Shown here piece by piece: positions 60-35,585 of a stretch of 64,000 nucleotides of DNA. Every line of letters begins with the position of its first letter. Position 1 is the first letter of the stretch. The notes beneath the pieces were generated by a model. That model made no database searches, had not been told where the DNA came from, and was given only the letters and a program-made list of their open reading frames with translations. A program made the position numbers and the translations under genes. This stretch comes from Massalongia carnosa. Taxonomy: Eukaryota. The stretch is from positions 806,001 through 870,000 of the forward strand of contig OZ287077.1 in NCBI GenBank assembly GCA_965645245.1. Reading direction: 5' to 3'.

Positions 60-1752
60 CTAGGCTTCGACCAAGCTGGGACGTGCAGGGTAACATTTCC
101 ACTCCACAAATAAAGAGCCGCTGAAAAATCCCAGGATTGCGAAACCAAGGAAAGAAAACGAAGAAAACCGGAAAGCTGTCATGTAAATTTCCAGCGCTTG
201 CTGTTTCAAGGCTGGCGCGAGATTTGGAAGTTCATCGATATTGTTTTTGATTGAAGATATCACATCGACGGCGTTCTGTTCGTTGCCGAAATGGCGCCAC
301 AATTGCGTTGTCAAGACGCTGTCGAAGATGGCTGAGGCCACAGCAATACCGATTGTAGATCCAACGGAACGGAATGCGTAGTTTGTGGAAGTCACGACCG
401 CTTGCATTTCAGGTGATACGGCACCGAGAAGAGCTACCAACAGCGTTGTGACCATGCCTCCGAAGCCAAGGCCAGCAAGCAAAAGACAAAGAAGCGGGAG
501 CCAGCTTACACTATGCAGATCCAGGGTGCAGATGGCACCGGCGGAGATGGCAAAAATGAGAGGAAGGCTGATAGAAATATGCCAATAGTGGCCCGATCGA
601 TAGATTATGAAACCTGCTACCAAGGAGCCTATAGTATTTCCAACACTTTGAGGGAGCAGACGTGCACCGGCATCGGTGGTCGACAGCCCCTGCAGTCGAA
701 AATATATCGGCCTGTAGAAAAGAATGGCAAAGTTAGCCATAGAGTTGAAAGAATTTGCCAGGCAAGGCCCAGCGACGCTCCAATTCAACATTAGTCTCAC
801 CGGAATCACCGGCTCCTCAGCAACATAGATCTCGATGTATAAGAAGCCTCCAAAAAGCACCAGGGACAGAGAAATGCAGATTGTGACGGAAGGATGTGTC
901 TATGGCACGGTCGAACTTCCGTAGTTTAGACCGAAGAGAAACAGCACTAGAACCATAGCCAACAAGAAAGACCCAAGAAAATCGATGCGACGCATAGGCG
1001 GTTTACTCGATAGCTGTGTCATAGGCAGCCTGACCTATAGAAAGGATGCAATGCTAAACCACAAGGCGAGCGGTGTGATCACCAGGAACGGGCTTCGCCA
1101 ACCCAACGTATCGTTGAACAGCCCTCTCACAAGCCCCCCTAACCCATGGCCCAGACCGAAGAGAAGATTCCCGAACCCTTGCCAAATACCTCGTTCTCGC
1201 AAGGAAAACAAATCATTGCACACGAAGCTCCCAATAGAGTTCATTCCTCCTCCGCCAATTCCGGCCAAGATTCGGCCAAATATTAGCACCCACGGTTCTT
1301 CTGCCAGACCACAGCAGAGGTTACCCACGGCAAAGAATATGCCCGCTACTACCAATCCGGCGCGACGACCGTAAAGCTCGGTCATTTGTCCACTGAGAGG
1401 CTGCACCGCTGCATTGGCTATGAAATACGTCGAACCAAGCCATGAAAGCAACGATAGCGACTTGAACGATGACAAGATCGGCGCGGCAAGAGTTGAGACT
1501 AACGTGCTGTCTGTTGGCTAATACTATTAGTCTTCTCTCGTCATCCTTGATAAAGCGTTCATGAACACGTTGAGTTTTGGGTACGTTACCTAAGGCGGCC
1601 AGAAATGTTCCTCCCCACACGCAGGCCAGTATGAGTATTAGATGTTCCTGGCGTGACTCTTTTCCGGGTTTCTTGTCTTGAGGTAGTGTCGTCTCGTCCT
1701 TAGGCGAAACTGCCGAAGGAGGTCGCAGAAGAGGGGATTCTTCAGTGAACAT
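60..1752 (-). pseudogene. MFS drug:H+ antiporter (DHA2/Vba-like), probably pseudogenised
   Basis: Motifs LAAL/DSTLVSTL, WLGSTY, QPLSGQMTELYGRR, GRILAGIGGGG, RERGIWQG, FRSVGSTIG. One intron near 1512-1590. The frame is interrupted by in-frame TAG codons at 1035-1037 and 900-902 (VP*THP where W is expected). Confidence 0.8.
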
Positions 1753-2616
1753 GGTTCGTTAAAAGGATGGCAGGCTTTAGTTTTGGTGAAGAAATATCCA
1801 ATTTATTGACCATGATTTAAAATGAAACCTCAGCCATCTATTCCACACCAACCCAAAAACAAAAGGAGCCGGTTTGTATTGACCTGGTTCTCAACGATCG
1901 ATGGTCGAGGAAAAACATTTCTCATATATATGCATAGTTGTCTGCCACAGAATCACATGCAGCGAAGAGGTAAGACATGTTTAGGAGAAGAAGGCAAACT
2001 TTGATCTACCGCGTACTCTCCACATCTAGGCAGTATATCAATATCGAAATGTAGTTGAAAACCTTGTATTCACAGCACATAGAAGATCGTTGGCTACGGG
2101 GATAATTGGAGATGAAAGGTCCTGAGCAAGGCCATGCAGGAGCGATTTACCAGACCGTTTTAATCTGCATCGGAATCTTTATGTCTAGTCAGCTAGTGTC
2201 AAGTACGGAGTTATAGGTTATAAAGCAAAGGGGAAGTATTATAGGTGCCTCTATACTCGATACAGAGGTAGGTTACAAGAAGAAGGATGAGAATAACAAG
2301 ACACGAAAACGATGATTGAACATTTAAAATACCCTGTTCTCCTTAGCTCGGGTCTGCGAAATGATGGATTGGACACTCACTACAGGTTCTCTTCACCGAA
2401 CAACAGCATATTCTGTACGGAGAGGAACGCTGAAGGTCTTGAGTGACGCTAATATCATGCATCTGCATGAATTTTATGTCGTGTAGTAACTGTTCAGCCT
2501 GCAACAGCCTGAACAGAATTCGTATTGTACTAATTTGTATGCGTACGCACTTGCGTATCATTAGCGTCAATTAAGCCTTTCGGTGTTCACCTTCGTACGA
2601 AGGACCTTGAAGTAGA

Positions 2617-2917
2617 TTCTATGACCCTTATCGATGCCGTTACCTTCGCTTGCGCTAGGGGGGCTTTTAATTGGATGAATTGATTTAAATGCTTGAATTT
2701 AATTGGGCATGGGAACGACACAGGTCAGCCCGGGCAGGCCTAGGCACGTGACTCGGGGTCGGTGCTGAGGTGAGAACCTCATCTTCTAGGCCCGAGGCGT
2801 CTGCTGACGCTCAACGATCCGATAGATGATGCCCGACGGCAGTGCCCGACGGCGATGATCTAGATGGAGGTGCCCGGCGGCGCTCCGGATCGATGCCCTG
2901 GTTGACCTGTACGCCCA
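2617..2917. repeat. Repeat Y, 301 bp (inverted partner 7099-7399)
   Basis: Manual alignment: 297/301 identical to the reverse complement of 7099-7399. Confidence 0.95.
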
Positions 2918-4022
2918 ATGGAATGCCCAATTGAGTAGGGTAGGAGTTTGTAGGATTCGTCTCGGCGACGACAGCACGTGGGACTGCTAGAGGGATGCCT
3001 TTTTGAAAACTGAGGTTCAAATTGAATAGTGAGGCCTGGGACGTCTGAAAGTATAGCTGAAACGCGTTTGATGACCATCTTCCGAGTCTCTGAATACTCT
3101 CATCCAGCATCCCGTGGTCGGCGGCGTGTTGTGCTGCTCCTTTTCTGAAGCTGTGTCCCGAGTATGCCGAGTCGTTGATGCCGACGGCTATCAGTCTCTT
3201 TTTCAGGGATGCTATGACGGAGGCTCTGGTGAATGCGGTGCCGAGACGAAAAAGCGGGGATGTAGATGGCTGAGGATCATTTCTGAAAAGACGCCGTAGT
3301 GCTGTCACGGGGCAAGTGCTCTCATTGGTCGCTGCCAGCACTATCTGAACTCCTGAGTGATTTGTGTCTGTTTTGCTTCTTTTGAGACGTAATGTCGCGT
3401 ATTGATCGTTCTCGGCGAATGAGATGTCACCTCGTGTAGGTTTCAATCTCTGAAAAGATGTCTTCTTACGATCAGCGACAGTGTAGGTGATTTCCCCGAG
3501 TCTGAGGAACCCTGCCCATGCAACTTTGAATGTCGCGTCGATGTTGAGGTCTTCGGCCGAATGAGCGGGAATACTGGTGATTTTTGTCAGTAATTCTTTT
3601 GAAATGGGTAGGCGTCTTCTTTTTGTCTGAGAAAAGATCCTTTTTCCCCCTTTCAGCATCAATTGAAGTCTCGGCCCCTCGAATGGGGTGAGGCCGTATC
3701 CTCGGTCTACATGGTATGATCTGAGGCCGGCGAGGTAGCTCGCTGCCGTCTCTGGTTTTATCTTTCCCTGCTTGGGTGTGCCGCCCCCGTATAGTCGACC
3801 GGCTAGCCATTCCTCGAGGGACTCGGTTGTTGCAGGCCACGACGTGCGTCCCGTCGTCGCGCAGAATGCCTCGTATGAGTCGATCGCCGTCCCGTACCCT
3901 TTTCTCGTGTCCGCCGAGTGTCCGTGCCAGACGAGACGTTTTACCAGGGCTGACCCTGGTGTGGAGGATAGGTAGGTGGAGGGAGGTTCATCGAATTGTA
4001 TGGGTTCTGCCAATGAGGGCAA
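2811..4022 (-). CDS. Tyrosine recombinase of the YR retrotransposon
   Basis: 403 aa with catalytic motifs FLRLGE, LKRSKTD, HSFRKGAA, LGRWSSNAFQLY. Overlaps the RT ORF by 82 nt and ends inside the terminal repeat. Confidence 0.93.
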   Translation of the reverse strand: MPSLAEPIQFDEPPSTYLSSTPGSALVKRLVWHGHSADTRKGYGTAIDSYEAFCATTGRTSWPATTESLEEWLAGRLYGGGTPKQGKIKPETAASYLAGLRSYHVDRGYGLTPFEGPRLQLMLKGGKRIFSQTKRRRLPISKELLTKITSIPAHSAEDLNIDATFKVAWAGFLRLGEITYTVADRKKTSFQRLKPTRGDISFAENDQYATLRLKRSKTDTNHSGVQIVLAATNESTCPVTALRRLFRNDPQPSTSPLFRLGTAFTRASVIASLKKRLIAVGINDSAYSGHSFRKGAAQHAADHGMLDESIQRLGRWSSNAFQLYFQTSQASLFNLNLSFQKGIPLAVPRAVVAETNPTNSYPTQLGIPLGVQVNQGIDPERRRAPPSRSSPSGTAVGHHLSDR

Positions 4023-5644
4023 AAGTTAGCCAATCTTTCATCATCAAAACGTGACAGGGCATCTGCTAGTCCATTGGAAGTGCCACTGATCCATTGACAA
4101 CGTAGTACGATGTCCCACTTTGCAGCTATGGACAGTATTTCTCGTAGAGGCGCGTTGGCCGGTCCCTTGAGGGTTAGATTCGTGAATCCTGTGTATGCTG
4201 TGTTGCTGTCGGTAAAGACAAGGATCTGTCGATGTCGCCATGTCGGCGCCCATTTCTGAAGGATTAGAAGGATAGCTTCGACTTCTCGGACGTTTATGCT
4301 CGGTGATCCTTCCTGATTGAGGACTAGGACTCGGGCCCTACATGCGTTTTTTTGATTCACGAGCTCGTTGTCTTGTTGAAAATAGCCTCCGAGACCCGTG
4401 AGGCATGCATCCGTATGCACCTTGATCGTGTCTCGTGTTGACGTCTCGAAGAAGACAATACCGTTGAAGTCCACTAGAAGTTTGTTCCACCAGATGAGAT
4501 CCTGTCTGACCCATGTGGGAATTCTTCTTTTGACCCGACGATGACTGCCCGAGGGAAATGAGGCTATAAAATTCCAGAATAATCGTAAGAAGACTCGGCC
4601 CAATTTGACTGCCTGTGCGCAGAAGCTTAGGAAGCCCGCTATTGACTGCATGTCGCCGAGGCTGATTGTCGTCTCGTTTAGTGCCTTTGTAGTGATGATT
4701 CTCGCTTTTTCCAGCTTGTCCGCTGGCAGACGAATAAGACTGTTGATGGTGTCGACCTCGAGTCCGAAGACTGTCGCTGTCGTTCCCTCGGCGTCTTTTG
4801 AGTCGTTTCTCGGGATGCCAAGAATGTCGGTGAGAATGTTGTAGGCTTTTGTTTCTTGGTGCAATCGTTCTGACGATGTCTCGGATGGGAAAATTGCAAC
4901 GAAGTCGTCTAGATAGTGATGTAATCTCCATTGTAGAAAGGATTCCAAAATCCAATGAAAGCCTTCCGCAAAAAGATTGAAGATGAACGGGGCCGTCGAC
5001 AGTCCGAACGAAAGGCATGTCTCGGTGTAGAATTCGTCATTCCATCCGAAACCCAGAAGCCATTGATGATGAGGTGCGACGGGAACGTTTCGAAAGGCGT
5101 CTTTGACGTCTCTTTTCACTATGACAGCACCTTTGCCCGCTGACAGAATCAATTGAATAATGTCGTCGAGTCTGGCGTATTGTAATTTGGATGCCTCTTC
5201 TGGAATGTTGTCGTTGACTGATGTTTGATTGGGATGAGACAGATGATGAATGCGTCGCCATCCTCCGTCATGTTTCGGGACCAAGCCGAGGGGGGAGGCC
5301 ACAAATGGCTGACTCGGGGCGGCTATTCGTCTGACTCGGCCCTTCCTGAGGTCCTCTTGGAGCTTATTCTCGATCGTTTCCGGGTCCTCATTCGCTGATG
5401 TCAGATTTTTTTCGATCCGAAGGATGTCTGTGGGGCCTTCGTATCCGATTTGTACTCCGAAACGAAGGATCATGGGCAGATGGACTCGGAGGGGGCCCGG
5501 ATACTCTTGAAGTAGAGTTGCCCATGCGGACGGTACGAGGGGAGATGGGCTGTCTTTCAAACGCTGACGAGATGCGTCTACGAGTTGAAACGAAGGGATT
5601 GTATTTGGTCTGATTGGTGCAGGTAAGCAGGGATGGGACGTCAT
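3941..5644 (-). CDS. Reverse transcriptase / RNase H
   Basis: 567 aa with SPLGLVPK, RRIHHLS, KRDVKDAFR, FGLSTAPFIF, YLDD, then RNase H motifs HTDAC, FTDS, NGLADALSR. No methyltransferase domain seen. Confidence 0.95.
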   Translation of the reverse strand: MTSHPCLPAPIRPNTIPSFQLVDASRQRLKDSPSPLVPSAWATLLQEYPGPLRVHLPMILRFGVQIGYEGPTDILRIEKNLTSANEDPETIENKLQEDLRKGRVRRIAAPSQPFVASPLGLVPKHDGGWRRIHHLSHPNQTSVNDNIPEEASKLQYARLDDIIQLILSAGKGAVIVKRDVKDAFRNVPVAPHHQWLLGFGWNDEFYTETCLSFGLSTAPFIFNLFAEGFHWILESFLQWRLHHYLDDFVAIFPSETSSERLHQETKAYNILTDILGIPRNDSKDAEGTTATVFGLEVDTINSLIRLPADKLEKARIITTKALNETTISLGDMQSIAGFLSFCAQAVKLGRVFLRLFWNFIASFPSGSHRRVKRRIPTWVRQDLIWWNKLLVDFNGIVFFETSTRDTIKVHTDACLTGLGGYFQQDNELVNQKNACRARVLVLNQEGSPSINVREVEAILLILQKWAPTWRHRQILVFTDSNTAYTGFTNLTLKGPANAPLREILSIAAKWDIVLRCQWISGTSNGLADALSRFDDERLANFCPHWQNPYNSMNLPPPTYPPHQGQPW

Positions 5645-5689
5645 GAATTCAGCTATTGAAGCTATTCTACTGCCTCCTGCACCAACCCC

Positions 5690-6703
5690 CTATTTCTTCG
5701 TTGGGCATGTCTTCTGGCCATGCCCAGCCGCGCCGCACGATTTACATTTGTGCTGTCGGTAGCACGACGGCCAGGTGCAGGTGCCGCTGTTGTACTTGTC
5801 GCAGATTTCCCCCGCTGCCTTCTCGGCCCTATCGGCCCTGTCTCCTCTCGGGGTCGGTCGCCGGGACGGCGGGGATCGTGAGCGGCGACGGCGTAGGACT
5901 GTGAGGGGGGTGCAGAATCGAGCTTGGAATTCGTCGGGCATTTTCCATTGGGATGCGTCGGATGGCTGAGACGCGATGATGTGAGTGTGGGTTTCGATGG
6001 CGAGGGGGAGGACTGCTTCCTGCCACTCGTACACCTTGGCCAGCGTGAGGATTTTTCCGTGGAATGCCGACATGGTGGCGTGAAGCTGTTGACTCGATTT
6101 CCCGAAAAGACTGACCATGATCGAGGTGTAGTTGATGAAGCTCTCGGTCCAGACGTCATGAACTGTCTTTCCGAAATCTTTGTAGGTCCCGGATGCCTTT
6201 CTCAACCTCAAGGCGCCGTCTTCGATGCCGATGCGGTCCTGATCCTTGTAGGACTCGTATTGCATGCCGTGCATGTGTCGGAGGCGGGAGAGGTTGATGG
6301 CTTTGAATTTATTTGAAAAGATCTTGATGATCTCGTCCTGTGGTAGGCCCGCGAAACGGGGTGCTATACTTCTTACTTCGAGAGGGATCTCACCTAGGTG
6401 CTCGTCGTCATCGCCGACGACACGACTCGGCTTGCCAGCAGGAATGACGGCCGCTATTCGGGCGTCAGATTCTCGGCGCATGCAGTCGATTTCTAGCTGC
6501 ATTTTTTCCACCTCCTTCTCGGCGACCAATGCCTTGGACTCGGCAATTCTGGCCTCAGCCTCGGCCGCCTTCGCTTCTGCCTCGGCTTTCTTCTTTTGTA
6601 GGGCGAAGATTTGATTGGACTGGGCCTGCGTCAATCCGACAATCTCCTGGGAGTCGGGGACTATGTCGTCCATCGGGGTGCTTTGGGAACGGGTGTTCGT
6701 CAT
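5690..6703 (-). CDS. Gag-like protein with coiled coil and C-terminal Cys/His fingers
   Basis: ATG at 6703, E/A/K-rich coiled coil, RRRRSRSP, terminal CDKYNSGTCTWPSCYRQH and CKSCGAAGHGQKTC. First ORF of the element. Confidence 0.85.
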   Translation of the reverse strand: MTNTRSQSTPMDDIVPDSQEIVGLTQAQSNQIFALQKKKAEAEAKAAEAEARIAESKALVAEKEVEKMQLEIDCMRRESDARIAAVIPAGKPSRVVGDDDEHLGEIPLEVRSIAPRFAGLPQDEIIKIFSNKFKAINLSRLRHMHGMQYESYKDQDRIGIEDGALRLRKASGTYKDFGKTVHDVWTESFINYTSIMVSLFGKSSQQLHATMSAFHGKILTLAKVYEWQEAVLPLAIETHTHIIASQPSDASQWKMPDEFQARFCTPLTVLRRRRSRSPPSRRPTPRGDRADRAEKAAGEICDKYNSGTCTWPSCYRQHKCKSCGAAGHGQKTCPTKK

Positions 6704-6773
6704 TGGGAAAAAGCACCGACAGCGAGGTAGGGGCACCGAGGACAACGTGAGGTCGACGACGAGTCAGTGAGAT

Positions 6774-7044
6774 GGGAAAAGCAGCAAGCACTGACAGCGA
6801 GGTAGGGGCACCGAGACAACGTGGGGTCGACGACGAGTCAGTGAGATGGATGAGGCCGAGTGAGAAGATGAGATGGTTCTATGTCACGTGAGGCCCCTGA
6901 GTCAAAGTAAATTAAGAATCACCCTCTGAAAATTCTTTCCTCATCCACTTCTTCTCACTCGGCCTCATCCATCTCACTGACTCGTCGTCGACCCCACGTT
7001 GTCTCGGTGCCCCTACCTCGCTGTCAGTGCTTGCTGCTTTTCCC
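6774..7044. repeat. Hairpin Z-X-Z': ~95-bp inverted arms (6774-6868 / 6950-7044) around segment X
   Basis: gggaaaagcagcaag...gagtgagaag versus cttctcactc...cttgctgcttttccc. Confidence 0.93.
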
Positions 7045-7098
7045 CACCCTCGGCCACCCGAGATTCATAGCTAGTTAGAAGCCACCTTAAGTGAGCGA

Positions 7099-7399
7099 TG
7101 GGCGTACAGGTCAACCAGGGCATCGATCCGGAGCGCCGCCGGGCACCTCCATCTAGATCATCGCCGTCGGGCACTGCCGTCGGGCATCATCTATCGGATC
7201 GTTGAGCGTCAGCAGACGCCTCGGGCCTAGAAGATGAGGTTCTCACCTCAGCACCGACCCCGAGTCACGTGCCTAGGCCTGCCCGGGCTGACCTGTGTCG
7301 TTCCCATGCCCAATCAAATTCAAGCATTCAAATCAATTCATCCAATTAAAAGCCCCCCCAGCGCAAGCGAAGGTAACGGCACCGATAAGGGTCATAGAA
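7099..7399. repeat. Repeat Y' (inverted copy of 2617-2917)
   Basis: Direct reverse-complement match. Confidence 0.95.
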
Positions 7400-7483
7400 G
7401 TGGATGAGGAAAGAATTTTCAGAGGGTGATTCTTAATTTACTTTGACTCAGGGGCCTCACGTGACATAGAACCATCTCATCTT
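7396..7483. repeat. Repeat X' (inverted copy of 6865-6952), forming the element terminus
   Basis: 88-bp reverse-complement match. Confidence 0.93.
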
Positions 7484-7723
7484 ACGCAGTCAATCACGTG
7501 CTCGCTCTCAATGTGTCATAGAGGTCAAACTTACATAGTTATGTAGTTACTGTATCCTGTACGGGTAACATACCGAGTAAAGCTGGTGAAATGAGCGTTA
7601 CTAATTCGCCGAGTGGCTCCGTAGAATACTCCTCAAATTACTCCAACATTGCTTTGTTTGTCCAACCGCTCACTCTCCACCAATCGAACTCCTTCCGACC
7701 CTCCCCTCCACTATGTGCTATAC

Positions 7724-7778
7724 CCCTCTCTTGGTCCCCTCTTCTGGTCCCCTCTTCTGGTCCCCTCTTCTGGTCCCC
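7724..7778. repeat. 13-bp tandem repeat (CCCCTCTTCTGGT), about 4 copies
   Basis: Read directly. Confidence 0.8.
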
Positions 7779-8123
7779 ATCGGTTCCCGGACATGCATGA
7801 AACTTTCTCTCATGCTCCTCGACGGCAGATTAGGGACATATGGTGCTGAAGTAGAGCATGACGTCATGAAGGATCCGCAAGTGAATGTCAGGGTTCTTTT
7901 GGCTATGGTGACTAAATCATGGCCCTGAAGTTGCCCGTAATAGATCACACGCTAAGCTTCTGGATGCATTGGGTCTTAATTCGTTCCATCATTGGGTTCT
8001 ACTAAGTAAAGTGCGGTGGTCCACGTCCTGGAGATTCTCCCGTGGGATATGCATTGGTTCCTCAGCTCTTTCGTTTCCTAATTAATTCTAGAATTTTATT
8101 ATCTTTTGAATTGAGGTTCAACG

Positions 8124-8330
8124 TGTTGAATATCCAATTCCTACCAGCACAATGAACACCTATCAGTACAATGAACATAGCACCTACGGCTGCCCTAGAT
8201 GGACAGATCATCTACGGAAACCGTAGATGCCGCATTAGGCTTAGTTCCAAGATAAGATAAGATCACCTCGCTTAGAAGGGTGACCAGTCGTAGGAAAAGA
8301 TTGCTACCTAGCAACTCTTCATCCTTAATA
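8124..8330 (+). mobile_element. Solo-LTR-like repeat, copy 1
   Basis: TGTTG...TAATA (TAACA in copy 2). Near-identical to the reverse complement of 14081-14289. Contains GATAAGATAAG and the hairpin CATCTACGG-AAA-CCGTAGATG. Confidence 0.7.
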
Positions 8331-8579
8331 TCATCAAATGCGATTCGATTTTCGATATTTTTGCATCATCTGAATGCGCTGACCGAGGTCTATAATTCAG
8401 TGAATTATCCATTTCAGGTAGTCAGTAGGTAATGATGCAGGTGCAGGTGCAGGTGATGAGCTGTTTGGTTTTCGAAGATATTTTCTTATCTTATCTTTTT
8501 GTGTCGGGCTATGCCGTCGGGGATGTGATCGGATCGGGAGCCCGGGCCGGGTTCAAACCCAACCCGACGATCACTCTAG

Positions 8580-9242
8580 TTGTTATCGCTTGTCTGACGA
8601 ATCGTATGCTTTCAATTCTTTTTATGCTCAATGTCAAAGTAATTGCGTCTGCGATAACGTGTTAAATTAACAGATGACATTAGATCTAATTAAACTCTTG
8701 TTACGATAACAATTATCATCATCTTTGACTGTCAATGTCGAAAATGATATAATTGTTTTTAAAACAAGATTTAGAGATTTGCCTTCTTTAAAGCAAAGAA
8801 CATGTCACGCGTTTATTGCTTGTAGTTGATCGAGTCGATTAGTTTTTTTAAACTATAATCGTGTTTCGAGTCCGATGTCATCGCTGCGACACAAAAAACG
8901 ATTGATCGATCGAATCTGATCGATCGAGGTAGCAGCTGACTGACTGATCAATTGTCACCGTGATCGCAGGAAAAGCTGATTGACTGAGCAACAGTCCTGA
9001 TTAGAATAGTCGTGATCTAATTAATCCTGCTGTTGTCATGCATTACGCACATTCGGGTTCTCATAACCTATTGAAGGGAGAATTGATTATCTTGATGCAT
9101 GATACGAATATTTAGAAGGGATAGTTCATGTCTGTAGAGATTTTACCTGAACTCCTAAAATGCAAGCTAGCCTAATTGGGTAATCGCAGTCACCAACTGC
9201 CTGACCACATTCTAGTTAGGCTAACACAGGCTAACATCAACA
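8580..9242 (-). mobile_element. Degraded Ty1/Copia 5' end (LTR about 9069-9242, PBS, gag remnant)
   Basis: Minus strand: TGTTG...TCAATA followed directly by GGTTATGAG (Copia-type PBS), then an AT-rich remnant reading LIDSINYKQ*TRDMFFAL, similar to the Copia gag N-terminal L-x-G-x-x-NY-x-x-W motif. Confidence 0.6.
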
Positions 9243-9706: not shown

Positions 9707-11371
9707 ATGTCTAAGACGCTCTCTATCCGAGGTAGAAAATCAGCTCTTACAGGGCGATCCTTGGATCGCTACCATAATGTTACAGCCGATCTCTATCATG
9801 GCGAAACCAACCGAAAAGGTTTGCTGGAGATGGGTGTATCTGAAAATGTAGGATTTTCCTGCTAGACTCCTTTTAAGCTACCAGGCGATAGAAGTCCAGC
9901 CGTTGATAGTCACTCGGATGCAGTTCCTCATGCAGCAGTGTGTGGCCGAGCACATCAACAAGAATGTGCGAGCGTCACTCCCATAATCTGATGAAACTTT
10001 TTGACTGATGAGCTTCCAATAGTTTTACATTGATCCATATACTATTGGCTACGGCGACGGGCCGAGTGGTAGCAAGCGCCTTAAAGCTGCCATGGCCGAG
10101 TTTATGACAAAATATTTTAACCCATTCGAGCCTGTCATGGCTGAGCATCTGCTATTTACATCAGGGCTAACTTCTGCAAATGAGATGCTAGCGTTTACGC
10201 TCATGGATGAAGGCGATGCCATCTTAGCATGTCAGCCTATTTATGGGGTGTTTAGCCGTGATTTCACCATCAAAGCGCGGTGAGTCGCTTCCATAACATA
10301 TGCCTGAAAGAAGAATTGCATCATTTTGATATTCTGTTGAGGCAGTTTAAAGATGCTCTACGTTCCCATGGAAGGAGTCGACCCCTTTTCCGTTGCTGCA
10401 TCAAGAAGGTTCGAGGACGCAATGATAGCAGCAAGAGAAAACGGGACAAGAGCCAAGGCTTTGATCTTGTGCAACCCACATAATCCACTAGGTTCTAAGC
10501 CCTGAAGTAAGGACATTGCCGATAGTTCTAACAAAAAATAGGACGATGCTATCCTCCAGAGGCTTTGAAAGCCTACATGGGCTTGTGCCAAATGCACAAG
10601 ATCCATTTGATCAGCGATGAAGTCTATGCGCTGTCTATTTTCGATTCTGGAGATTCCAACGCACTGCCTTTCACATCGGTTCTGGCTATTGACAGCACGG
10701 ATCTCATTCGCCCAGACTATCTTCACGTCCTATACGGTATGAGTAAAGTAGGTGCGGTAGGCTTCTCCACGAGTTGAGAAATGGTTGATTGATCCGTAGG
10801 ACTTCGCTGCCAGCGGGCTGCGCCTTGGCTGTATCTGCACCCAAAACGTAGAGCTTAGATACTCATTGAAAGCCATTTCGTTCGTGATTTATGAAACTCA
10901 TGATGGCTAGGCGTTTCTGACTACCTCCATAGCGCATATCACTGGGCATCCGGGCCCTCGACTGCCGCTGCTGAAACGATGCTCGATGACACAAAGTGGG
11001 TAGCGTCGTTCATCCAGCGTTCTCGAAGCCTTCTGGCCGAAAGCTATTGCCATGCCACGGCACTCCTCCGAGCAGCCAGCATACCTTACTATCAAGGCGG
11101 TAACGCAGGTTTCTTCCTTTGGTGCGACTTCCGGGCGTATCTTTCAGCCTACGGAGATGGATTCGAAGGTGAAAAGGCGTTGTCCCAGCGGTTCATGGAA
11201 GCTAAGGTCTTCCTTGCGACGGGAGAATCCTTCCACAGCGAAGTCCCGGGATGGTTTCGAGTCATTTTCACGCTGCCAAAAGATCAGCTGGAGGAAGGAA
11301 TGAGAAGGATCGTTTCCGTTTTGCACGCTGAAGTTGGGTCCAGGAGAAAGGTGGAGAAAAGTAGTATGTGA
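9707..11371 (+). CDS. PLP-dependent class I/II aminotransferase, ACC-synthase-like (multi-exon)
   Basis: Motifs YGDGPSGSKRL, CNPHNPLGRCY, LISDEVYALS, YGMSKDFAASGLRLG, GFFLW, PGWFRV. Six GT-AG introns restore a continuous frame. Confidence 0.88.
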
Positions 11372-11815
11372 CAGGATTAGCATTTCATGTTCCGGTTCTG
11401 TTTGGAAGACTTGCTCCAAATGCTTCTAAAGGAATTGTAGCTCATGTGGCTGCCTGCAGCTAGACTTAGCTTATGTAGTGACCCGAGTGCCACCTAATCG
11501 CGTTGTAGATGTTCATTAACTACCTAGCAAAGAACGCGAGGCAGTAGAGTTTGACCTTGCATTCACATCATCAAATCCCGAGTCGATTCAGCATGCTCCA
11601 GAGTACAGAGTACAGAGTATCCTATTACAGGAAGACATGTCAGTTAGCTACAATCCCCTCCAGAGAACGGTCAGATGCATAGCTTTTAGCCGTCTATTTT
11701 TGCAGCTTCGTCGTTATGCATCATACATATTGTGTTGAGTACGGGTTTAATCCTTTAAAGGCAGCTTCTCTACGAGAGTTCTTAGTGTTTGTATAGTTGT
11801 CACGCATTTATCTTC

Positions 11816-13240
11816 ATGGCGCTTTCCCAAGAGCTTGACTCTGGTTTTCAGACACACAACTGCAACGAAAAGCCGCGAGACGAGAAGCGGCTGCCTGCCA
11901 CGGTGTCTTTGCACCTAACGAACTTCCTGGCTTCAAATCCCAGCATTCGGTTCATCCGTTACCAATGGGTCGATCTCTTCGGCGTCCTCCGTGTCCGTGT
12001 CCTCCCCAAGGCCCACAGCCTGTCGCTCGCCACTACAAACTCCCCCGTCACCCTTGGCCCTTTTGCCCACGCCATCCTAGTTGATGGCACCATGATGCCC
12101 GACACAAAACCTGATGGTGTAGACAGCCTGTATCCCGACTGGTCGTCGCTCGCCAAGTCGAACGGCGGCAAGGATGGTGACCATTACGCCGCAGTCATGT
12201 GCTGGGTATCGGAATACAACCGCGACTGCCCGGATTTGGGTTACCAGCGCTGCCCACGATCGGCATTGCAGCGTGCCGTCGCGTACGCTCAGGACACTTG
12301 CGGCCTAGAATTCCTGGTCGGCTTTGAGATTGAGTTCATTCTAACAAGCACAAACGCCGAGGGCCACCGGACTCCGCTGGGCGGCGACGAGGGCATCTGG
12401 ACTGCCTCCAGCACCCGCACCCCCGCCTTTGCTTACGTGGAAGAGAGCGTTGACGCTCTCACAGCAGTAGGTATCGACGTCCAGCAATTCCACTCCGAGG
12501 GCGCTGCCGGTCAGTTTGAGATCTCGACCGCGCCGCTACCGCCGCTGCAGGCCGTTGACGCTTTGATTCTCACCCACGAGACGATCAAGAATGTGCTCGC
12601 CCGGCACGGGCATCGCGCGACCATGTATCCCAAGCCTCTCGACCGCCTCCCCTCGAATGGCGCCCACATGCACGTTTCGTTCGTCGGCAGCCCGGCCCCC
12701 GTGGGGGCGGATAAGGGAGACGCATTTCTGGCCGGCCTGCTACGGCGCATCCCTGCGCTGTGCGCCTTCACCATGCCGACGCACGACTCGTACGTACGCG
12801 TAGAGCGCCTCGAGGCCGGCGAGCACGTGGGCTGGGGTTCGCAGAACCGCACGGTCCCGGTCCGCCAAGTCCGCCCATGCCACTGGGAGCTGCGGTTCGT
12901 TGACGGCACGGCAAACATGTACCTGGCGCTTGCGGTGTGCCTTACGGCCGGGGCGCTGGGCGTGCGCGACGGCGAGGCGCTGCGGTGGCGGGATTGCACG
13001 TGCGCTGAGGATGCGCGGGATCTGGAGAACGGGCCCGTGGACGCGGACGGGTCAACCCCGCTCCCGAAAAGCTTGAGAGAGGCGCTGGCGTGTCTTGCGG
13101 ACGACCCGGCCCGGTTAGGAGACGTGCTTGGGACGGCGCTGGTGGAGCGGTATTTACGGGTGAAGGCGCACGAGGAGATGCAGATGGGGAGGCTAGACCG
13201 GTTGGCGAGGAGGAGGTTGTATTTGCAAAAATTTGGGTGA
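11816..13240 (+). CDS. Glutamine synthetase-like protein (FluG C-terminal / gamma-glutamyl ligase type)
   Basis: RFIRYQWVD, GFEIEF, HSEGAAGQFEI, NGAHMHVS, WGSQNR, HWELRFVDGTANMYLA. Single exon. Confidence 0.88.
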   Translation: MALSQELDSGFQTHNCNEKPRDEKRLPATVSLHLTNFLASNPSIRFIRYQWVDLFGVLRVRVLPKAHSLSLATTNSPVTLGPFAHAILVDGTMMPDTKPDGVDSLYPDWSSLAKSNGGKDGDHYAAVMCWVSEYNRDCPDLGYQRCPRSALQRAVAYAQDTCGLEFLVGFEIEFILTSTNAEGHRTPLGGDEGIWTASSTRTPAFAYVEESVDALTAVGIDVQQFHSEGAAGQFEISTAPLPPLQAVDALILTHETIKNVLARHGHRATMYPKPLDRLPSNGAHMHVSFVGSPAPVGADKGDAFLAGLLRRIPALCAFTMPTHDSYVRVERLEAGEHVGWGSQNRTVPVRQVRPCHWELRFVDGTANMYLALAVCLTAGALGVRDGEALRWRDCTCAEDARDLENGPVDADGSTPLPKSLREALACLADDPARLGDVLGTALVERYLRVKAHEEMQMGRLDRLARRRLYLQKFG

Positions 13241-14080
13241 TTTTCTGTTTTGGTTTGTTACTGTGGTTGATGGTGTCCTAGAATTTTGCTTTTTATATCG
13301 TTCCAAGCCTTGGTTGTTTTAGAGGGTGAGAATCAACCGATTTGCTGCTGTCTTTGGTTTTCCCAGATTCGAGGTTTTAAATCCATCCATCCATCAACCG
13401 GCCCTTGCCCCGTTTCCTCCTCCACCTCTCCTCCTCTCCCTTCCTTCCCTTTCCCCTCTCCCCCCGCCCCACCCCCCTTCTGCGCCCTCGACTAACCAGC
13501 AATAGTCAAAAGCGAAGCCGGATAATCGACGTATTCGGGCAGGCGAAGGAAAAGAAAGAAGAGCGATGAAGGGCCCATTGCCACACGTATATGTACCGTA
13601 CCGTACATATATATCTCTACTACTCCATCTCTATATCTATCTATTTTCGTTTAGTCATTTAGGCTGCTTAGAGTTTAAGCAACTAGCTATCAAGTTTACT
13701 TTATGTACTCGGGGAAAATTGTACAGGGAGGTTTTTACGAATAGCTTCGTTGTGTTTCATTTCGACGGAATTTCTATCCCTCCCATTTTTTGAAATTCAT
13801 ACCACCCAAACAGTCAACCAGCCAGCCAGACATCACAAAGAACCCCCCCCCCCCCTCCTCCCCCAAAAAAAACGAGAAAACGAACCGCGACGAGTGGTAG
13901 TCACATATGTAAGCTACAAGTAAGCGAAATTGATTGATGGTTTTTGGGGGAGGGGATAGGAGGAATGGCGGACTGAAGCTGAAACAAAAGGTGGAGGTTC
14001 CTATCCGTCCAATTCATCTCATTCTGTTGAAATAGGTATATGACTATGGCTATATGGCTATGTAATATGTATGACCGTGA

Positions 14081-14289
14081 TGTTAAGGATGAAGAGTTGC
14101 TAGGCAGCAATCTTTTCCTATTACTGGTCACCCCCTTCTAAGCGAGGTGATCTTATCTTATCTTGGGACTAAGCCTAATGCGGCATCTACGGTTTCCGTA
14201 GATGATCTGTCCATCTAGGGCAGCCGTAGGTGCTATGTTCATCGTACTGATAGGTGTTCATTGTGCTGGTAGGAATTGGATATTCAACA
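14081..14289 (-). mobile_element. Solo-LTR-like repeat, copy 2 (inverted relative to 8124-8330)
   Basis: TGTTA...CAACA ends and reverse-complement match to copy 1. Confidence 0.7.
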
Positions 14290-14949
14290 CATTCTCACCC
14301 TTTTAAAGGAAATAAATGAACGAACGGAAAACGAGAGACGTAGAAAAAAGATTTCTTTTTTTTTCTTCTTCCCAACAAATTGGACGGAAATGTCGGAATT
14401 GATTTTTTTGGTTTTACTGGTGTGAGTAGATAGGTTGATTGATTGGTAAGTATATATGATAAATATTGAGATTCAACTAGTTATCAAGGTAAAAACACTG
14501 TAGGTAGTTTTGAACTAATTAGGTATACATAGTTACGAGTACTCTGTACCACCACTAGGTGTTTATATAATCTCAAATCTATCGCAACCGACTCCCCCTC
14601 CAAAAAAAGAAACGAAAAGAGTTGCATACCTATTATCTGGGTTACACTAGTTATGGAAATCGGATGACTAGGTAAGAGAACGTAGCCAGCAGAGGAGGTT
14701 TGATCGGGGGAGCTTGATTGAATGATTGAGTTCATAATTCGAGAGGTAAGAGGGGAAATTTAGGTAGAGATAATGCTGGCTGGCTAGATAAGATTGAAAC
14801 AGAAGGGGGAACGAGCGAGAAAAAGCCGTTATTGAAGGAAGGGGGGGGAGAAAGGAAAAAAAAAAACTGTTAAGGGGTATATATCCGCTCCAAGCCCCCC
14901 ATCCAAACCGACAAACACCAAAACCACCGACCGTTCTCCCTCCTCCCCT

Positions 14950-27660: not shown

Positions 27661-29550
27661 GCTGTAAGTGAGATCGTGATTGTTAATGGATATCATTTTG
27701 TAGACGATGACTTGTTGTTAAAATGGAGAAAAATCGAAAAGGGTTCAGAGAGAGACAAAAGAACGCCACGAATGCTCGACAAAGTACAACGACATTCTGA
27801 AATGGAAAAGTACAGATACCTTCAACGAACTCCATATCTCTTGAGTCAATGCACTTAGCATTTTGGTTCTATGAATGGCTAAATGGCTAAATGGCTGTCC
27901 AGCCTGGAGCACTTATACTTAGCAGGTGGCTAGCTGTGGGAAAAAATAGAGTACTTAAAGCGCTTCTTTGCAAACAATAGTCTCGTGCCCCTCCATGCGC
28001 CCCCTTTTGCTTGAGGTGTTTAACAATCTTCGCTCCTATCATTTTTTTAAAAACAACAACAACAACAATGAGACATTTATAGCCTCAATTGACATTCATT
28101 TAGATCAACTACAGGCCCAGACCAGACAACGCCTGTGTCGAAATGGTCAAAAGAGTTTCATCACAAATGCATGCAACAAAGTAGCCAATAAACTTCGAGG
28201 TCGGGCAGGACGCAAGAGGGCCCCAGTCATCACTCCAGGAACGCTGAAATACGCCTGGGCCAAGAGAATCACATCGGAGGCACATAACCCTCCAACACCG
28301 ACACCAAATCCACCATGGGCCGAATCCCCCCCGAATCTCGTCCGAGAAATAGGGGAGGCACGCGCCGCTCATAACAAAATAACTGCTCAAATAAAAAAAC
28401 TACACACATTTGCATGGCAGGCCTCGTGGAGATCATATCAGGAACGCATACCCGTTCCCACCCCGGCACAATCAGGTTCACTCTCCAAAAAACGCATCAA
28501 ATTGCACGAAACTCTAGCCAAAGCGGAGAGCGCGCTAGCCATTCAGATACGCTCAGAAAAGATAGGCCTAGCCGCCTTCCTACATAGACACCGAGTCCCA
28601 GACGTCTCGTCCCCGAACTGCTCATGTGGCTGGCACAAACAGACTGCAAAACATGATCACATGTTTTGCAAACTCAACGACAACAGAAAAACTCTGCTAA
28701 ATACGATAGGCATAAACAACTATCGATTAATCACTGAATCATCTAAAGCAATGAAATTAGTCACAAAGTGGCTAATAAAGACAGGTTTGTTCTCACAATT
28801 TTCGCTGACAGCACAGCATCTATACTGCTAACAGTAGGCATGCTTTGTTTCATTTTTCATACTTGTCTTAGGTCAAAGGTTTTTTCATGGAGCACACGGC
28901 TAGGACCCGGAGGGTCCTCGGCCGGACACAGGATTGCATGGTTTTTCTTGCCTCAGTACTTCGTACCTCAGACCTGCCTTGCCCTCGCCACAGCTAAGCA
29001 TTTTCGGATTAGTATATAATTAGTCAGAAGCTAAGTCAATTTAGTTAAATGTTGCCTCAGTACCTCAGACGTGCGTGGCTCAATGAGCCGGCTAAGCCCC
29101 TCCGGGTTAGCCTATTTTCGCTAAGCCCCTTCGGGTTAGCGTCGCTGCTGACTAACATCAGTGCGATAGCACGTCTGAGCGCAAAACTCAAAATTACGGC
29201 CAGATCCGCGTAATAAAAATTTTAGCAGTGCAACCATTCCTTTTATGGATTTAATACAATGATTAGGGTCGTATTAGTTTACCAGAGACTGTATTTTATA
29301 CCAAAAACGCACCTCTCAAGATGGATGACTCGATAATCATGTGTTATAACTACTGTCAGGCTAAGAAAAGCGATGTGAAAGTCGATTAAGTGATAAATTG
29401 TTCGCTTTCGCTCAATTTTGAGGTTGATGAACTGATTATTTTCATGTGGCGCGATTACATTGAGTTACAAAGATCATGATGATATGAATAACGACGGCCA
29501 ATCAATGGTATTGTATGATTTATCTAGATTGAAGCTATCTGACGAAAGCC

Positions 29551-32229
29551 ATGGCTCTTGTCGGGGGCCCCTCCTCGCCACTTACCGACCTACGGACAAG
29601 TCCCTTGACTCCCGCCGGTGCGCTCAAGCGGCCCCACCCATCGCCGTCAGGCAGTAATGATAGCTCACCCTCTTCCTCCTCCCCTCCTGCCTTACCTGAA
29701 AAAAATGGAGGCGCGAAACGCCACCGCCGGCGCATATCAGATTACGACAAGCTGGTTGAGGTGCTTAAATTTCTGAGCTCTCTAAATTGGTCGGTAAAAG
29801 ATTTTTTATCAACACTTTGTAAGAATCGAGCCCGTCATAGTATGCGAAAGGCGCAAGGCCAGCTCTTCGATTTTGTCTATGTCGATATTGTGCGGCAAGA
29901 AGACTTTTCAAGCCTCATTGGGCCTGGTAGAATATCCACTATCCTTCGCGAGAGAGGATGGGTTTGGGCCGCGGATGTGCTTCGTGAAGAAATCAAAGCT
30001 TTGGCAGAGCACGCAGCCTTTGGCCCTTTCCAGCCGCCCTCTGCGACAGTCGAGTTTGGGACCTTGGAGGCTATTAAACTTGCTGCATCTGCCGCCAAGC
30101 AGTTGGCGCCACGATGGCTTGAGCTAATTGATAGTGTTTGTCGCGAGGCTCGCCCGCAGGAACCTCTCGATGTGACGTTGGATTCTCCCAGCGGCCGGCA
30201 CACCGTTATATTGGCAATGCTTTGTCACAAATTGCGACCAAATAAGGCGACCAATATTCAGTCCGTCTTAGGCCTTTATATTTATCAAGGTGGGGCGAGG
30301 CGGCGAGTTCTAGATACACTCTGTCATTTTGACCTGACGATGTCATATACTACCCTGCAGCGGCGCATGTTGTCCTTGATTAAGGAGGCCGAACGAAAGG
30401 TTCAGATGCTAGGACAAGGCTCAAACATGATCTTGACATACGATAACTTTGACTTCGCAGAAGGTAAACGAGGAGAGCGCACGGGGGATAATAGAGACGT
30501 CAGATCAATCACTACCGCTCTAATTTTCCAGGGGCAAGGATTCGATGCCGGCGCTTTGAGGCAGGATATGTGGCGCCCCGCCACGCATCTTTTATCAGCT
30601 GAAAGAATTGCGCGAAAGCTGGAGACTGGTGATCTCGAGATGCAGGTGAGTTCAATACAGGACGAGGTGTATATACCGCGCTCAATCGCTAATGCACCGC
30701 GTACCTAGATTCGTCTTCATCATCTAGAGTCAGCGATTCGAGCGCTTTATGGCCCAGAGATCGGCGACGTTCAACTTCCTTGGTCGACTGCAATGCCCGT
30801 GCTGAATAAGATGAAAAAATACAAGACCAATTACATTCCTATCAAACCAGTCATGAAGGATGAGAGCACAACATCTAATAATATTCAAATATTGGAGGAT
30901 ATATTTGTGCGACAGTTCAAGTTCAAGGAGGATGACTCGACGTTTGCGAGCGTCATTCGGCTTATCTATGGTGACCTCAAGACATGGTCGAGAATGCAAT
31001 CTGTCAAGGAATTACGTCGTGGGATATCGGAGCAATCTTTCGATCGGTTCGACTGGATTTTACCGGGATTAGGGTTATGGCATCTTCGCTTTAACATGCT
31101 GCAGCTTATTCATAAAATACATTGGGGAGAGGCCCAGCCGGTTGATCCTTCGACTCTTCAATATGCCGCCGATCGGTGGGGCCGCGCTCGTGTCGTGCAG
31201 CCGAACGATTTCCAGGCCTTAGAGGATCTGATCATTCAGAGCTATCAAGCTAGAATCGTTGGGACGTGGATTAGGTTTTTACGAAAGGATGGATATGCTC
31301 CGCAGCGAATCGAAGCAACTATTTCGTGGCTCACAGCGCAGACTTGCGGGCAGGATGGCACCTGGATGAATATGTTGGGCAGGATATCTCGCAAACTTCA
31401 CGCGGAATTACCCTCAACGTCAATAGATATGCTTCCTCCAACGCTTGATCAACAATTTCAGAATCATCAGAACTTCTGTGATCACGTTGAATCGTATCTA
31501 ACACTTCGATACGCAATCAAATATGCGGATATTGGACTACTTCGTCACGCATTGCGCCACGCAACGGTGATCTTTCAGGCAAGCGTAGCTGGCACCCCGA
31601 AATATGCGCAAGCTCTTCTATACACCCTTCATGCGATTGATTCTTCCGCAGCGACCATAAGGCTACAGGAAAGTATTTTAATGAATAGTCTTGTCAATTT
31701 ACGCGGTGACGAAGAGTCGAGTTTTGAGACTGATCGGCTTTTAGAGATACTAAACAATAACCTCAAGACGTTCCAGCACGAGCGATCTTATTTTTCAAAG
31801 TATAGTGACACCTTGCTCGAGAACTGGGCACTCAACGGTCCATATCTTATGAAGCTCAAAGAAATCGTTGAGTTTTACTTTGGAAGAGTCAACTCTTCAA
31901 GGCATCCAGCAAAATCGGCCGCAGAGGATGTGTGGGGCATGGCTACGGCACTAGCGCATAAATCACTCTATAAAAGAAGCTATGATCGATTTTCAACTAA
32001 TCCAACAGCTAATCTTTATGTTGAGGGATTGAAGAAACTTGGAGAAAATGTATTAAAATACAATCAGCAGTATCTTTCCGAAGAAATTTCAAAAGAAATT
32101 TCAACAGACGACCTTGAGGGTAAGTATGAAGCCGAGCCCGATTTTGTCAATGAAACAAAGCAGGTCCCCGACAGCCCTGTCATTTCAATGGCCCGTCTCG
32201 AGATATCCGGCGGTATGTTTTTTGATTAA
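29551..32229 (+). CDS. Putative Academ-type transposase (DUF6589-like), about 871 aa
   Basis: Intron 30646-30708 (GTGAG..GCTAAT..TAG) joins the 385- and 478-aa ORFs in frame. Motifs LTYDNFD, YGDLKT, GLGLWH, TDRLLEILNNNLK as candidate catalytic acidic residues. Confidence 0.78.
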
Positions 32230-32288
32230 ATCATCGATACCACGAGATAGCCTAGTCATGTAAATCCGCGCCGCGCGGCTTTACAGAG

Positions 32289-34464: not shown

Positions 34465-35585
34465 TTCGATGTGTTCGCGAGCGATATTCGACGATTCGCG
34501 AGTTGGATTCTTAGCCCGCAAAACGCACATCAAGCAAGTTCATCACATTCAACGATTTTAGGCTTTCGAAAACAACGCTCGGAGGATCAGATTAATGATC
34601 AGAAGCGCCGACAATGAAAAACTGGAGCTAGTGACCCGTTGAGTCTGCTGTGGTGGTGTCGAAATTTCGAGTCAAAGTCGAGTCCTCGTCGCGAGATCGA
34701 TATTGCGACTCAATTTTGCATCGATATGTAATTAAAATATTGATTAATCGATAGAATGTATATCAAAGCATCATTTCTATTATTACATAATTTATGAAAT
34801 GTCGTTGCGCGTTGTTGATTCCGCCGTCAACTTGATTCTTGATGATTTTTGAGGTTAAGCCAAAAATTTGTATGAGCGCGCACCAAAATAAGCCGGATCT
34901 GACAAAAATACAGAGTTTTGCGCTCAGACGTGCCGCCCGTAGCATGCGTAGTCAGCTAAAGGGCCGCTAACCCGAAGGGGCTTAGCGAAAATAGGCTAAC
35001 CTGGAGGGGCTTAGCCGGCTCATAGAGCCACGCACGTCTGAGGTACTGAGGCAAGTTAAATGTTTAACTGTTTTAGGATAAGATTCTATTTAGCTTACTA
35101 CGCATGCTTCGGTGTAAGCACAGCGAACCTAGTACGCACGGTCTAACTTTAAAGGGTTAGGCACATAGGCTAAATAAGTTAGCGCCGAGCTAACCGAAAG
35201 AGGTTAGTGCAGATGAAGGCTGTGCCACAACACGTCTGAGGTACTGAGGCAAGGTTTTTCTTCCTCAAAAGGTTTTCCATGTACTATAAAACTAGATAGA
35301 CTCGCCCGCATGGGCCGGCCTTCGGCCGGTACCACATCGGAATAAGAATCATCATCATCATCATCAACAACAACAACAACAACAACAGGCAATTAACATA
35401 AGAAGATTAAATATGAAAACGACGACAGGATAAGTTTTCGACATCAAAAATCAAAGGGGTTTAAAAGTAGAAATATATAATGAGAGTTGGAAGCTTTGTA
35501 GAATATGGGAGGAAATTACTGATATCTTAAGTCTGTAACGAACCGCCTAGCAAAGAGTATATTCACACAACTCATCATCTATGTA

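Follow-up and report, generated by a model that had tools for sequence, protein, structure and literature searches.

DIRS1-like retrotransposons carry inverted terminal repeats, internal complementary regions and a 3-nucleotide (nt) circular junction, and their model needs an internal complementary copy of the joined termini (PMC3266345). Ngaro (Ngaro-like) retrotransposons are placed in the same DIRS order (Goodwin and Poulter 2004, as cited in PMC6681497, PMC8547959 and PMC13465315). Their model needs an internal direct copy of the joined termini (PMC6681497), and they lack the methyltransferase that marks DIRS-like and PAT-like elements (PMC7192593, PMC13465315). Solo AB repeats of Ngaro elements are known from Cafeteria burkhardae (PMC8547959), and DIRS-1 is described as inserting preferentially into DIRS-1 (PMC7192593). 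Ngaro elements have been reported as almost absent from Ascomycota, and a Ngaro is reported in Aspergillus fischeri (PMC3783388). Here we analysed a 64,000-nt stretch of DNA from Massalongia carnosa (contig OZ287077.1, positions 806,001–870,000 of the forward strand; hereafter the window), in which positions 2617–7483 hold a tyrosine recombinase (YR) retrotransposon whose repeat pairs are all inverted.

An earlier note on this DNA had interpreted the arrangement as a different scheme of end regeneration or, alternatively, as a recombinase-flipped isomer of a Ngaro element. Our analysis points to self-nesting instead. The locus is probably a rearranged Ngaro-type copy, built as A repeat, open reading frames (ORFs) and B repeat, whose 5′ A repeat (A1) received an inverted solo AB unit or AB mini-circle through the action of the element's own recombinase. 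As we read its sequence, it belongs to a new Ngaro family of an ascomycete and represents a self-nested copy, not a new architecture.

Repeat architecture of the window copy

A repeat search of positions 1500–9000 and a direct arm-to-arm comparison recovered the three inverted pairs described in the earlier note. They belong to a coding host copy and to an insert nested within it, with the following layout (X2, X5 and X6 are sequencing runs introduced below):

2617–2917 and 7099–7399: inverted pair Y/Y′, 301 nt, 99% identical (98.7%), from the repeat search
6774–6868 and 6950–7044: inverted pair Z/Z′, 95 nt, 100% identical, from the repeat search
6865–6952 and 7396–7483: inverted pair X/X′, 88 nt, 100% identical, from the repeat search
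2618–2917, minus strand: host B repeat, 3′ terminal, overlapping the end of the YR ORF (repeat search and comparison; contig X2 record 1)
6711–6849, minus strand: tandem duplication of 75 nt in the 5′ leader, partly in the A repeat (repeat families D3 and D4)
6774–6868, minus strand: inner part of host A1 (arm Z), adjoining gag, with the target triplet AGA at 6866–6868 (repeat search and comparison)
6869–7398, plus strand: nested inverted ORF-less mini-copy (A-spacer-B, solo AB) of 530 nt (block-removal test, termini, X6 record 28)
6869–7044, 7045–7098 and 7099–7398: parts of the nested block, namely its A repeat (X core 6869–6949 plus Z′ 6950–7044), its spacer and its B repeat ending in AGA
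7399–7482, minus strand: outer part of host A1 (arm X′), the 5′ terminus of the host element, adjoining single-copy flank (repeat comparison; X2 record 8, X5 record 23)

Inverted repeats this long (88–301 nt) and this perfect far exceed chance. With x, y and z for the X, Y and Z units, s for the 54-nt spacer and a bar for the reverse complement, the A repeat is x z̄ (X plus Z, about 180 nt) and the B repeat is ȳ (Y, about 300 nt). In the sense of the element, which lies on the minus strand, the modules of the window copy follow one another as x y s z x̄ z̄ gag pol YR ȳ. One triplet recurs at every module boundary, as AGA at 6866–6868 and 7396–7398 and as TCT at 2618–2620, 6950–6952 and 7480–7482, and the X, Y and Z pairs overlap by 3–4 nt because each boundary carries it. 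The outermost triplets are TCT 2618–2620, where the host B repeat meets single-copy flank at 2617/2618, and TCT 7480–7482 in the outer part of host A1.

The arms of X and of Z show no mismatches, and Y and Y′ differ at four positions (2634, 2657, 2687 and 2701), always with A in the host arm Y and G in the partner arm of the insert. The differences look like four G-to-A changes in one arm only. They are confined to the outer 85 nt, and run X4 carries G at 2687 and 2701. Two of the four stand in TpG context, which would fit damage by deamination or resembling repeat-induced point mutation. The 6711–6849 duplication varies in length among copies, with deletions of 17 nt and 1 nt in X5 record 22 and a joint of 6688>6779 in X2. 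A whole-window scan found no second copy of the element, no direct repeat family of at least 60 nt and five inverted pairs in total.

The nested block as a clean insertion

Within the nested block the plus-strand order is x z̄ s̄ ȳ. When 6869–7398 was excised in silico, joining 6868 to 7399, the rejoined stretch matched in full the X/Z′ boundary of the block in reverse complement: the host A repeat (x then z̄) ran on uninterrupted, and the net change was one AGA only. Because removal restores the host A repeat exactly, the block is a clean insertion into the 5′ A repeat. Its termini, the start of x and the end of ȳ, match nucleotide for nucleotide those with which the whole element meets the single-copy flanks. 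The extra block had been described in the earlier note as an inverted, ORF-less mini-copy of the element, and the A-spacer-B structure at 6869–7398 with these shared ends bears that description out. Each of the three inverted pairs accordingly sets one host repeat against one insert repeat.

All four junctions, counting those of the block and those of the element, carry AGA/TCT within A-AGA-A. Viewed in the direction of the inserted unit, the genomic target site and the internal one are both A-AGA-A. Neither the junctions of the element nor those of the nested block show any target duplication beyond the common triplet, as would be expected of conservative site-specific recombination. A 22-nt word from the X core had no exact match in the genome contig collection and none in the viral contig collection.

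Coding content and family assignment

The window copy encodes three proteins, in the order gag, reverse transcriptase (RT)/RNase H and YR on one strand:

5690–6763, minus strand: gag-like ORF with its first ATG at 6703 and a C-terminal CCHC knuckle, ending in TAG (stop-to-stop ORF, translation)
3941–5689, minus strand: pol ORF of 582 amino acids (aa) with RT and RNase H (RVT_1, E=2.2e-12; RT_RNaseH, E=1.6e-4)
2811–4025, minus strand: tyrosine recombinase ORF, 404 codons stop to stop (catalytic residues, Cre profile match, weak Phage_integrase match)

The minus-strand ORFs agree with the earlier note. The Pfam search gave no family for the gag-like ORF, and its CCHC knuckle is taken from the translation. 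In pol, RVT_1 and RT_RNaseH are the only Pfam matches and, on Pfam evidence alone, no methyltransferase domain is present; the methyltransferase that DIRS1- and PAT-like elements carry downstream of RNase H was not found in the window copy. The N terminus of the YR aligns to the N-terminal domain of Cre, and no domain-sized stretch is left unassigned for a methyltransferase.

Judged by its conserved residues, the third minus-strand ORF is a real and intact tyrosine recombinase. R175, H291, R294, W317 and Y325 are invariant in 12 aligned YR sequences (the window copy and 11 of the relatives treated below; L073 and L079, with 7–8 in-frame stops in YR, and L055 were excluded). The alignment profile matches Cre recombinase (E=1.3e-5) in its catalytic end as well as in its N-terminal domain, in agreement with the earlier classification of the element as a YR retrotransposon. 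Pfam Phage_integrase is matched by 8/12 of the aligned members, the window copy's own match being weak and under the cut-off (E=0.0059).

At 5687–5695 on the minus strand, a single TAG closes gag (context AAA TAG GGG), with pol in frame behind it. Among 11 relatives, seven have one in-frame stop between gag and pol, one has two, one has none and two have pol in another frame, which suggests that gag-pol is made by stop-codon readthrough in this Ngaro clade. The gag-stop-pol arrangement was seen in loci L001, L002, L005, L011, L013, L034, L037 and L055. Over 85 nt (3941–4025, minus strand) the YR ORF shares sequence with the end of pol, from which it is offset to the −1 frame. It lacks an ATG upstream of codon 123, yet its conservation with relatives begins at codons 1–12. 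These features suggest expression as a fusion or via a frameshift; the 3941–4025 overlap yielded no classic slippery heptamer.

The gag, RT/RNase H and YR coding, the lack of a methyltransferase and the direct-order repeats of sister copies and relatives, described in the next section, together mark the element as Ngaro-type. They uphold the kinship to Ngaro rather than DIRS1 that had been proposed from the letters of the sequence.

Direct-order repeats in sister copies and relatives

Part of the interval 2300–7800 occurs in 14 of 23 sequencing runs; the 23 include a lichen metagenome. Seven of the 23 hold about half or more of the sampled words from this interval (0.47–0.82), under six organism codes and five study codes. 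We compared the contigs of four runs (X2, X4, X5 and X6) with 2300–7800, and the observations on contigs that follow cover the 32 of 4440 pieces that were listed.

The exact window insertion is present in X2 and X5. X2 record 1, a contig of 2762 nt whose depth is that of the flanks, starts at 2300 and enters the repeat as far as 2656, and the flank on the 7482 side is crossed by X2 record 8 (7456–7761) and by X5 record 23 (7454–7761, 0 differences). Organism codes A and C share this exact insertion plus another breakpoint at 6900. X4 and X6 hold the element at 0–1 differences per kilobase-scale contig, without the window's flanks.

Two contigs from these last runs are informative about repeat order. 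X6 record 28 (290 nt, depth 2.4) joins 7369–7395 straight to 6866–7128, giving B end, AGA, A2, spacer and the start of B2 in direct order. Its junction consists of the joined window termini over the shared triplet, followed by A2-spacer-B2 as in a canonical Ngaro element. A circle junction of this kind had been predicted by the earlier note, in a form 3 nt too long: the contig has one TCT and not TCTTCT. In X4 record 14 (1625 nt, depth 4.1), X lies opposite to its orientation in the window and directly upstream of Z and gag, which is the canonical A1-gag order. It had also been stated that ordinary A-B-A-B direct repeats in all other copies would make the window locus a one-off rearrangement; both informative pieces have that order, a result that extends to these two pieces and not to all copies.

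We therefore take the normal layout of the family to be A1-gag-pol-YR-B1-A2-spacer-B2. In the window copy, A2-spacer-B2 is missing at the 3′ end and a 530-nt module of the same type lies inverted within the 5′ A1. All modules are present, and the split direct repeats A1-ORFs-B1-A2-B2 are absent from the window copy itself, all three pairs being inverted.

Other listed contigs leave the element at its termini. Seven diverge behind 7399/7400 (five from X2, one from X5 and one from X6), with mutually different consensus sequences, and two X5 contigs diverge before 6865. In all of them, A is the flank nucleotide that adjoins the triplet. By their sequence, these diverging ends are other insertion sites with the same termini.

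Related elements were sought by scanning metagenome contigs with a pattern derived from a 30-sequence pol alignment. In all, 372 stretches matched, 340 encode a relative and 79 loci were kept, with 33–53% identity; this protein scan returned no copy of the window's own family. YR is present in 60/79 loci and gag in 35/79 (tblastn), gag always upstream of pol, and in the eight loci displayed gag precedes and YR follows pol. Self-BLAST found both repeat pairs in A1-ORFs-B1-A2-B2 order in six of the 79 (L025, L046, L064, L065, L075 and L079) and no internal repeat in 42, mostly short contigs. Inverted terminal repeats around gag-pol-YR combined with a hairpin upstream of gag occurred in 0/79 by the same method. 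L012 and L029 are tandem or circle-like assemblies with both repeat pairs present. L046 is the only relative with both flanks and shows no clear shared triplet, a comparison in which the BLAST-defined boundaries are imprecise and the families divergent.

In three of the related loci, one short contig also bears a second copy in inverted orientation. The two copies stand head to head, 277 nt apart, in L064; head to head in L063, where the partner is 5′-truncated; and tail to tail in L059. These paired copies indicate that landing beside or inside a sister copy is not rare in the clade, and they recall the self-insertion of DIRS-1 (PMC7192593). L064 was considered as a second case of the window pattern and rejected, as its two A termini stand head to head with unrelated sequence filling the 277 nt. 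Two loci from one metagenome, L073 and L079, are degenerate copies with 7–8 in-frame stops in YR. Long imperfect palindromes lie upstream of gag in L055 (144–571) and L073 (1152–1561).

Comparison with Ngaro and DIRS1 elements

The window copy resembles Ngaro elements in its order of gag, RT/RNase H and YR, in lacking a methyltransferase and in having the A and B repeats twice each. The likeness extends to the B1|A2 junction, which equals the joined termini, and to the direct-order pieces in sister copies and the full direct order in relatives. It differs from them in that its A2-spacer-B2 lies inverted inside A1 and not after B1, so that every pair is inverted. The 530-nt block corresponds to a Ngaro solo AB repeat as an isolated, ORF-less A-spacer-B unit, as expected from recombination between 5′ and 3′ repeats. 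It differs in that it sits inverted in the A1 of a coding copy and has recombinase-type junctions, a nesting that does not appear in the available part of PMC8547959.

Likeness to DIRS1 extends to inverted terminal repeats of about 300 nt (Y/Y′, 301 nt, 98.7%), a left extension that is complemented internally, a junction triplet and the lack of a target-site duplication. The AGA/TCT triplet parallels the 3-nt circular junction of DIRS1-like elements (PMC3266345). The internal region of the window copy lies 5′ of gag, however, and not at the 3′ end; methyltransferase is lacking, and gene order and relatives are of the Ngaro type. Adjacent internal complements of both termini near the 3′ end, as in DIRS1, were not found, X matching the left terminus only and then giving way to Z. 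DIRS1-type bridging was consequently rejected as a means of end regeneration: X templates the left end only, and its extension copies Z and not the right terminus. The DIRS1 resemblance is a by-product of nesting.

Origin of the nested copy

In the course of events that we propose, A2-spacer-B2 would first be lost as a circle, either through recombination between B1 and B2 or through YR acting between the internal B1|A2 junction and the right end. The products would be A-ORFs-B and a mini-circle (x z̄ s̄ ȳ) with an intact junction site. The recombinase would then integrate this circle, via its junction AGA, into A-AGA-A at the x/z̄ boundary of A1, in inverted orientation. This target within A1 would be the same kind of site as the genomic site of the whole element, and integration of a circle at A-AGA-A would reproduce all four observed junctions. 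The circle might also have come from another copy, or a nested full copy might later have been reduced to a solo AB, with the same outcome. We infer this order of events and the role of the recombinase in it, as well as the loss of end regeneration discussed below.

Several observations weigh against this account. No contig bridging 6868/6869 or 7398–7400 is among the listed pieces, so the arrangement is read from the assembly alone. The direct-order evidence from sister copies consists of two contigs, at depths of 2.4 and 4.1 in two runs, and one of them, X4 record 14, spans the 95-nt repeat and might, taken alone, represent a graph path. Divergence in two contigs of X2 sets in behind 7479, ahead of TCT, which is a misfit to a fixed TCT end. 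The four differences between Y and Y′ stand against 0 in the 183 nt of X and Z; the insert could stem from another copy, or the host arm could have mutated later. Finally, an inversion in a circular intermediate followed by a loop flip needs an equal number of events.

This last course would place the rearrangement before integration. In a canonical Ngaro circle, the recombinase would invert Z-spacer-B between the circle junction and the X/Z-boundary TCT of the second A, the X loop would be flipped via its Z arms (95 nt) or through an RT template switch, and normal integration would follow through the remaining junction. Such a course accounts for a module content equal to that of a canonical copy (two A, two B, one spacer and one ORF block), for the normal outer termini and target triplet and for the position of every breakpoint at AGA/TCT. 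We nevertheless regard it as unlikely: a single inversion leaves X wrongly oriented beside gag and makes the extra flip necessary, whereas insertion yields the observed order directly and explains the exact restoration of A, and the circular form was not observed. A model with one inversion was rejected outright, as no pairing of junction and X/Z-boundary sites in the canonical circle gives the window order. The simple flipped isomer first suggested for this locus therefore does not fit, and either excision of A2-spacer-B2 with inverted reinsertion or inversion with a loop flip is required. That the assembly itself misleads, the true locus being a canonical Ngaro copy whose A2-spacer-B2 was misplaced by the assembler or by a fold-back chimeric read, seems very improbable. 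The lack of an independent bridging contig for the specific junctions among the listed pieces would agree with such an error, as would the highly repeated nature of the family (596 of the 4154 X2 contigs fit two places) and the equal length and termini that a canonical copy would have. Yet both specific junctions are sequence that does not exist in a canonical copy and would need real reads, and the breakpoints fall on the element's own termini and AGA triplet, unlike those of a random chimera. The outer flank junctions are moreover confirmed in two runs from different studies, one of which may be the source sample.

We give least credence to a functional, heritable architecture with its own end regeneration, in which each X would form the loop of a long stem in the circle. 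The three ORFs are intact, the repeats are near-identical and the layout is DIRS1-like: besides inverted terminal repeats it has X′ as its left extension, which X complements internally (in the terms of PMC3266345). Against these features stand the direct-order pieces in sister copies, the occurrence of the layout in 0/79 related loci and the behaviour of the block as a clean insertion. The internal X, furthermore, complements the left terminus only; the half for the right terminus is absent, which leaves the circle junction without an internal template. The different end-regeneration scheme envisaged in the earlier note is not supported, on the same evidence, and a candidate fourth architecture of YR retrotransposons is thereby removed, the layout being a nested rearrangement of a normal Ngaro element.

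Consequences for the copy and the family

The window copy still encodes all proteins. Its interior does not repeat the circle junction, whether directly or as a complement; without that template it would probably fail to regenerate its own ends, and it is probably immobile. A transcript through the copy would carry inverted repeats of 301 nt and 95 nt and could form double-stranded RNA. Mu killer of maize is an inverted-duplicate transposon locus whose hairpin RNA silences its family. In the window copy, too, a long stretch of terminal sequence is present a second time, inverted, upstream of the genes, and silencing of this kind is a possible consequence only.

It is conceivable, though doubtful, that the A-spacer-B module moves alone as a double-stranded DNA mini-circle, excised at the B1|A2 junction and the right end and reinserted at A-AGA-A. 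If so, this mobility would amount to DNA-level cut-and-paste by a retrotransposon recombinase, with sister copies among its targets. Its products would be hairpin-bearing copies that could feed RNA silencing of the family, and the window copy would be a natural footprint defining the 3-nt crossover core and 5-nt target of the recombinase.

Integration has hardly been studied in Ngaro elements, and the locus resolves the junctions of this reaction to the base, with AGA as the core, A-AGA-A as the target and no duplication. It also indicates that a layout like that of DIRS1, inverted terminal repeats plus an internal complement, can arise from a single self-insertion, which calls for caution when elements are classified automatically by their repeats.

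Abundance and host lineage

A protein search in which 8000 candidates were scored gave 317 pol homologues at E<=1e-10. The best non-identical matches among those listed have 57–61% identity, the upper values of this range applying to partial lengths. Talaromyces stipitatus, Penicillium subrubescens and Aspergillus fischeri provide named matches at about 44%, the last of these being a species with a reported Ngaro (PMC3783388) that may be the same element. A 90%-identity cluster with 59 members is headed by a protein identical to pol; the 15 members listed are spread over at least nine different megabase-size contigs. In X2, depth is 831–1718 over the flanks and 86,619–355,531 over the element, and in X5 it is 0.9–6.7 and 83–468; these depths are summed over contigs, are not copy numbers and give a hint of many copies only. 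Together, the depth contrast and the pol cluster indicate many copies, and the family is, on this reading, multi-copy in a Pezizomycotina genome.

The glutamine-synthetase/FluG-like ORF near the element has its best named matches in two lichen-forming ascomycetes, Lignoscripta atroalba and Peltula sp. (52%), with Aspergillus at about 42%. The family thus resides in a Pezizomycotina fungus, probably one of a lichen-forming lineage, in agreement with the lichen metagenome among the sequencing runs. Since the ORFs are open and the repeats 98.7–100% identical, the nesting event is recent; the window copy is evidently young and the family recently active. The locus represents an intact, multi-copy and evidently young Ngaro family in Pezizomycotina, where Ngaro elements have been thought nearly absent.

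Other features of the window

Three further repeat structures lie outside the element:

29047–35257: putative large DNA transposon of uncharacterised type, with terminal inverted repeats of 95 nt at 96% identity and subterminal pairs of 40 nt and 27 nt, enclosing about 5.8 kb
8120–8333 and 14078–14293: inverted repeat of about 215 nt, 93–98% identical, flanking 5.7 kb (whole-window repeat scan)
7723–7774: four tandem copies of the 13-nt unit CCCCTCTTCTGGT, just outside the element (repeat search of 1500–9000)

The 29047–35257 interval looks like a large DNA transposon of uncharacterised type. It contains a DUF6589 ORF (E=2.3e-62), a 391-aa ORF without a family and, on the opposite strand, a split DEAD/Helicase_C ORF. 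Between the arms at 8120–8333 and 14078–14293 lie the glutamine-synthetase/FluG-like ORF (11786–13240) and an aminotransferase fragment (10904–11371).

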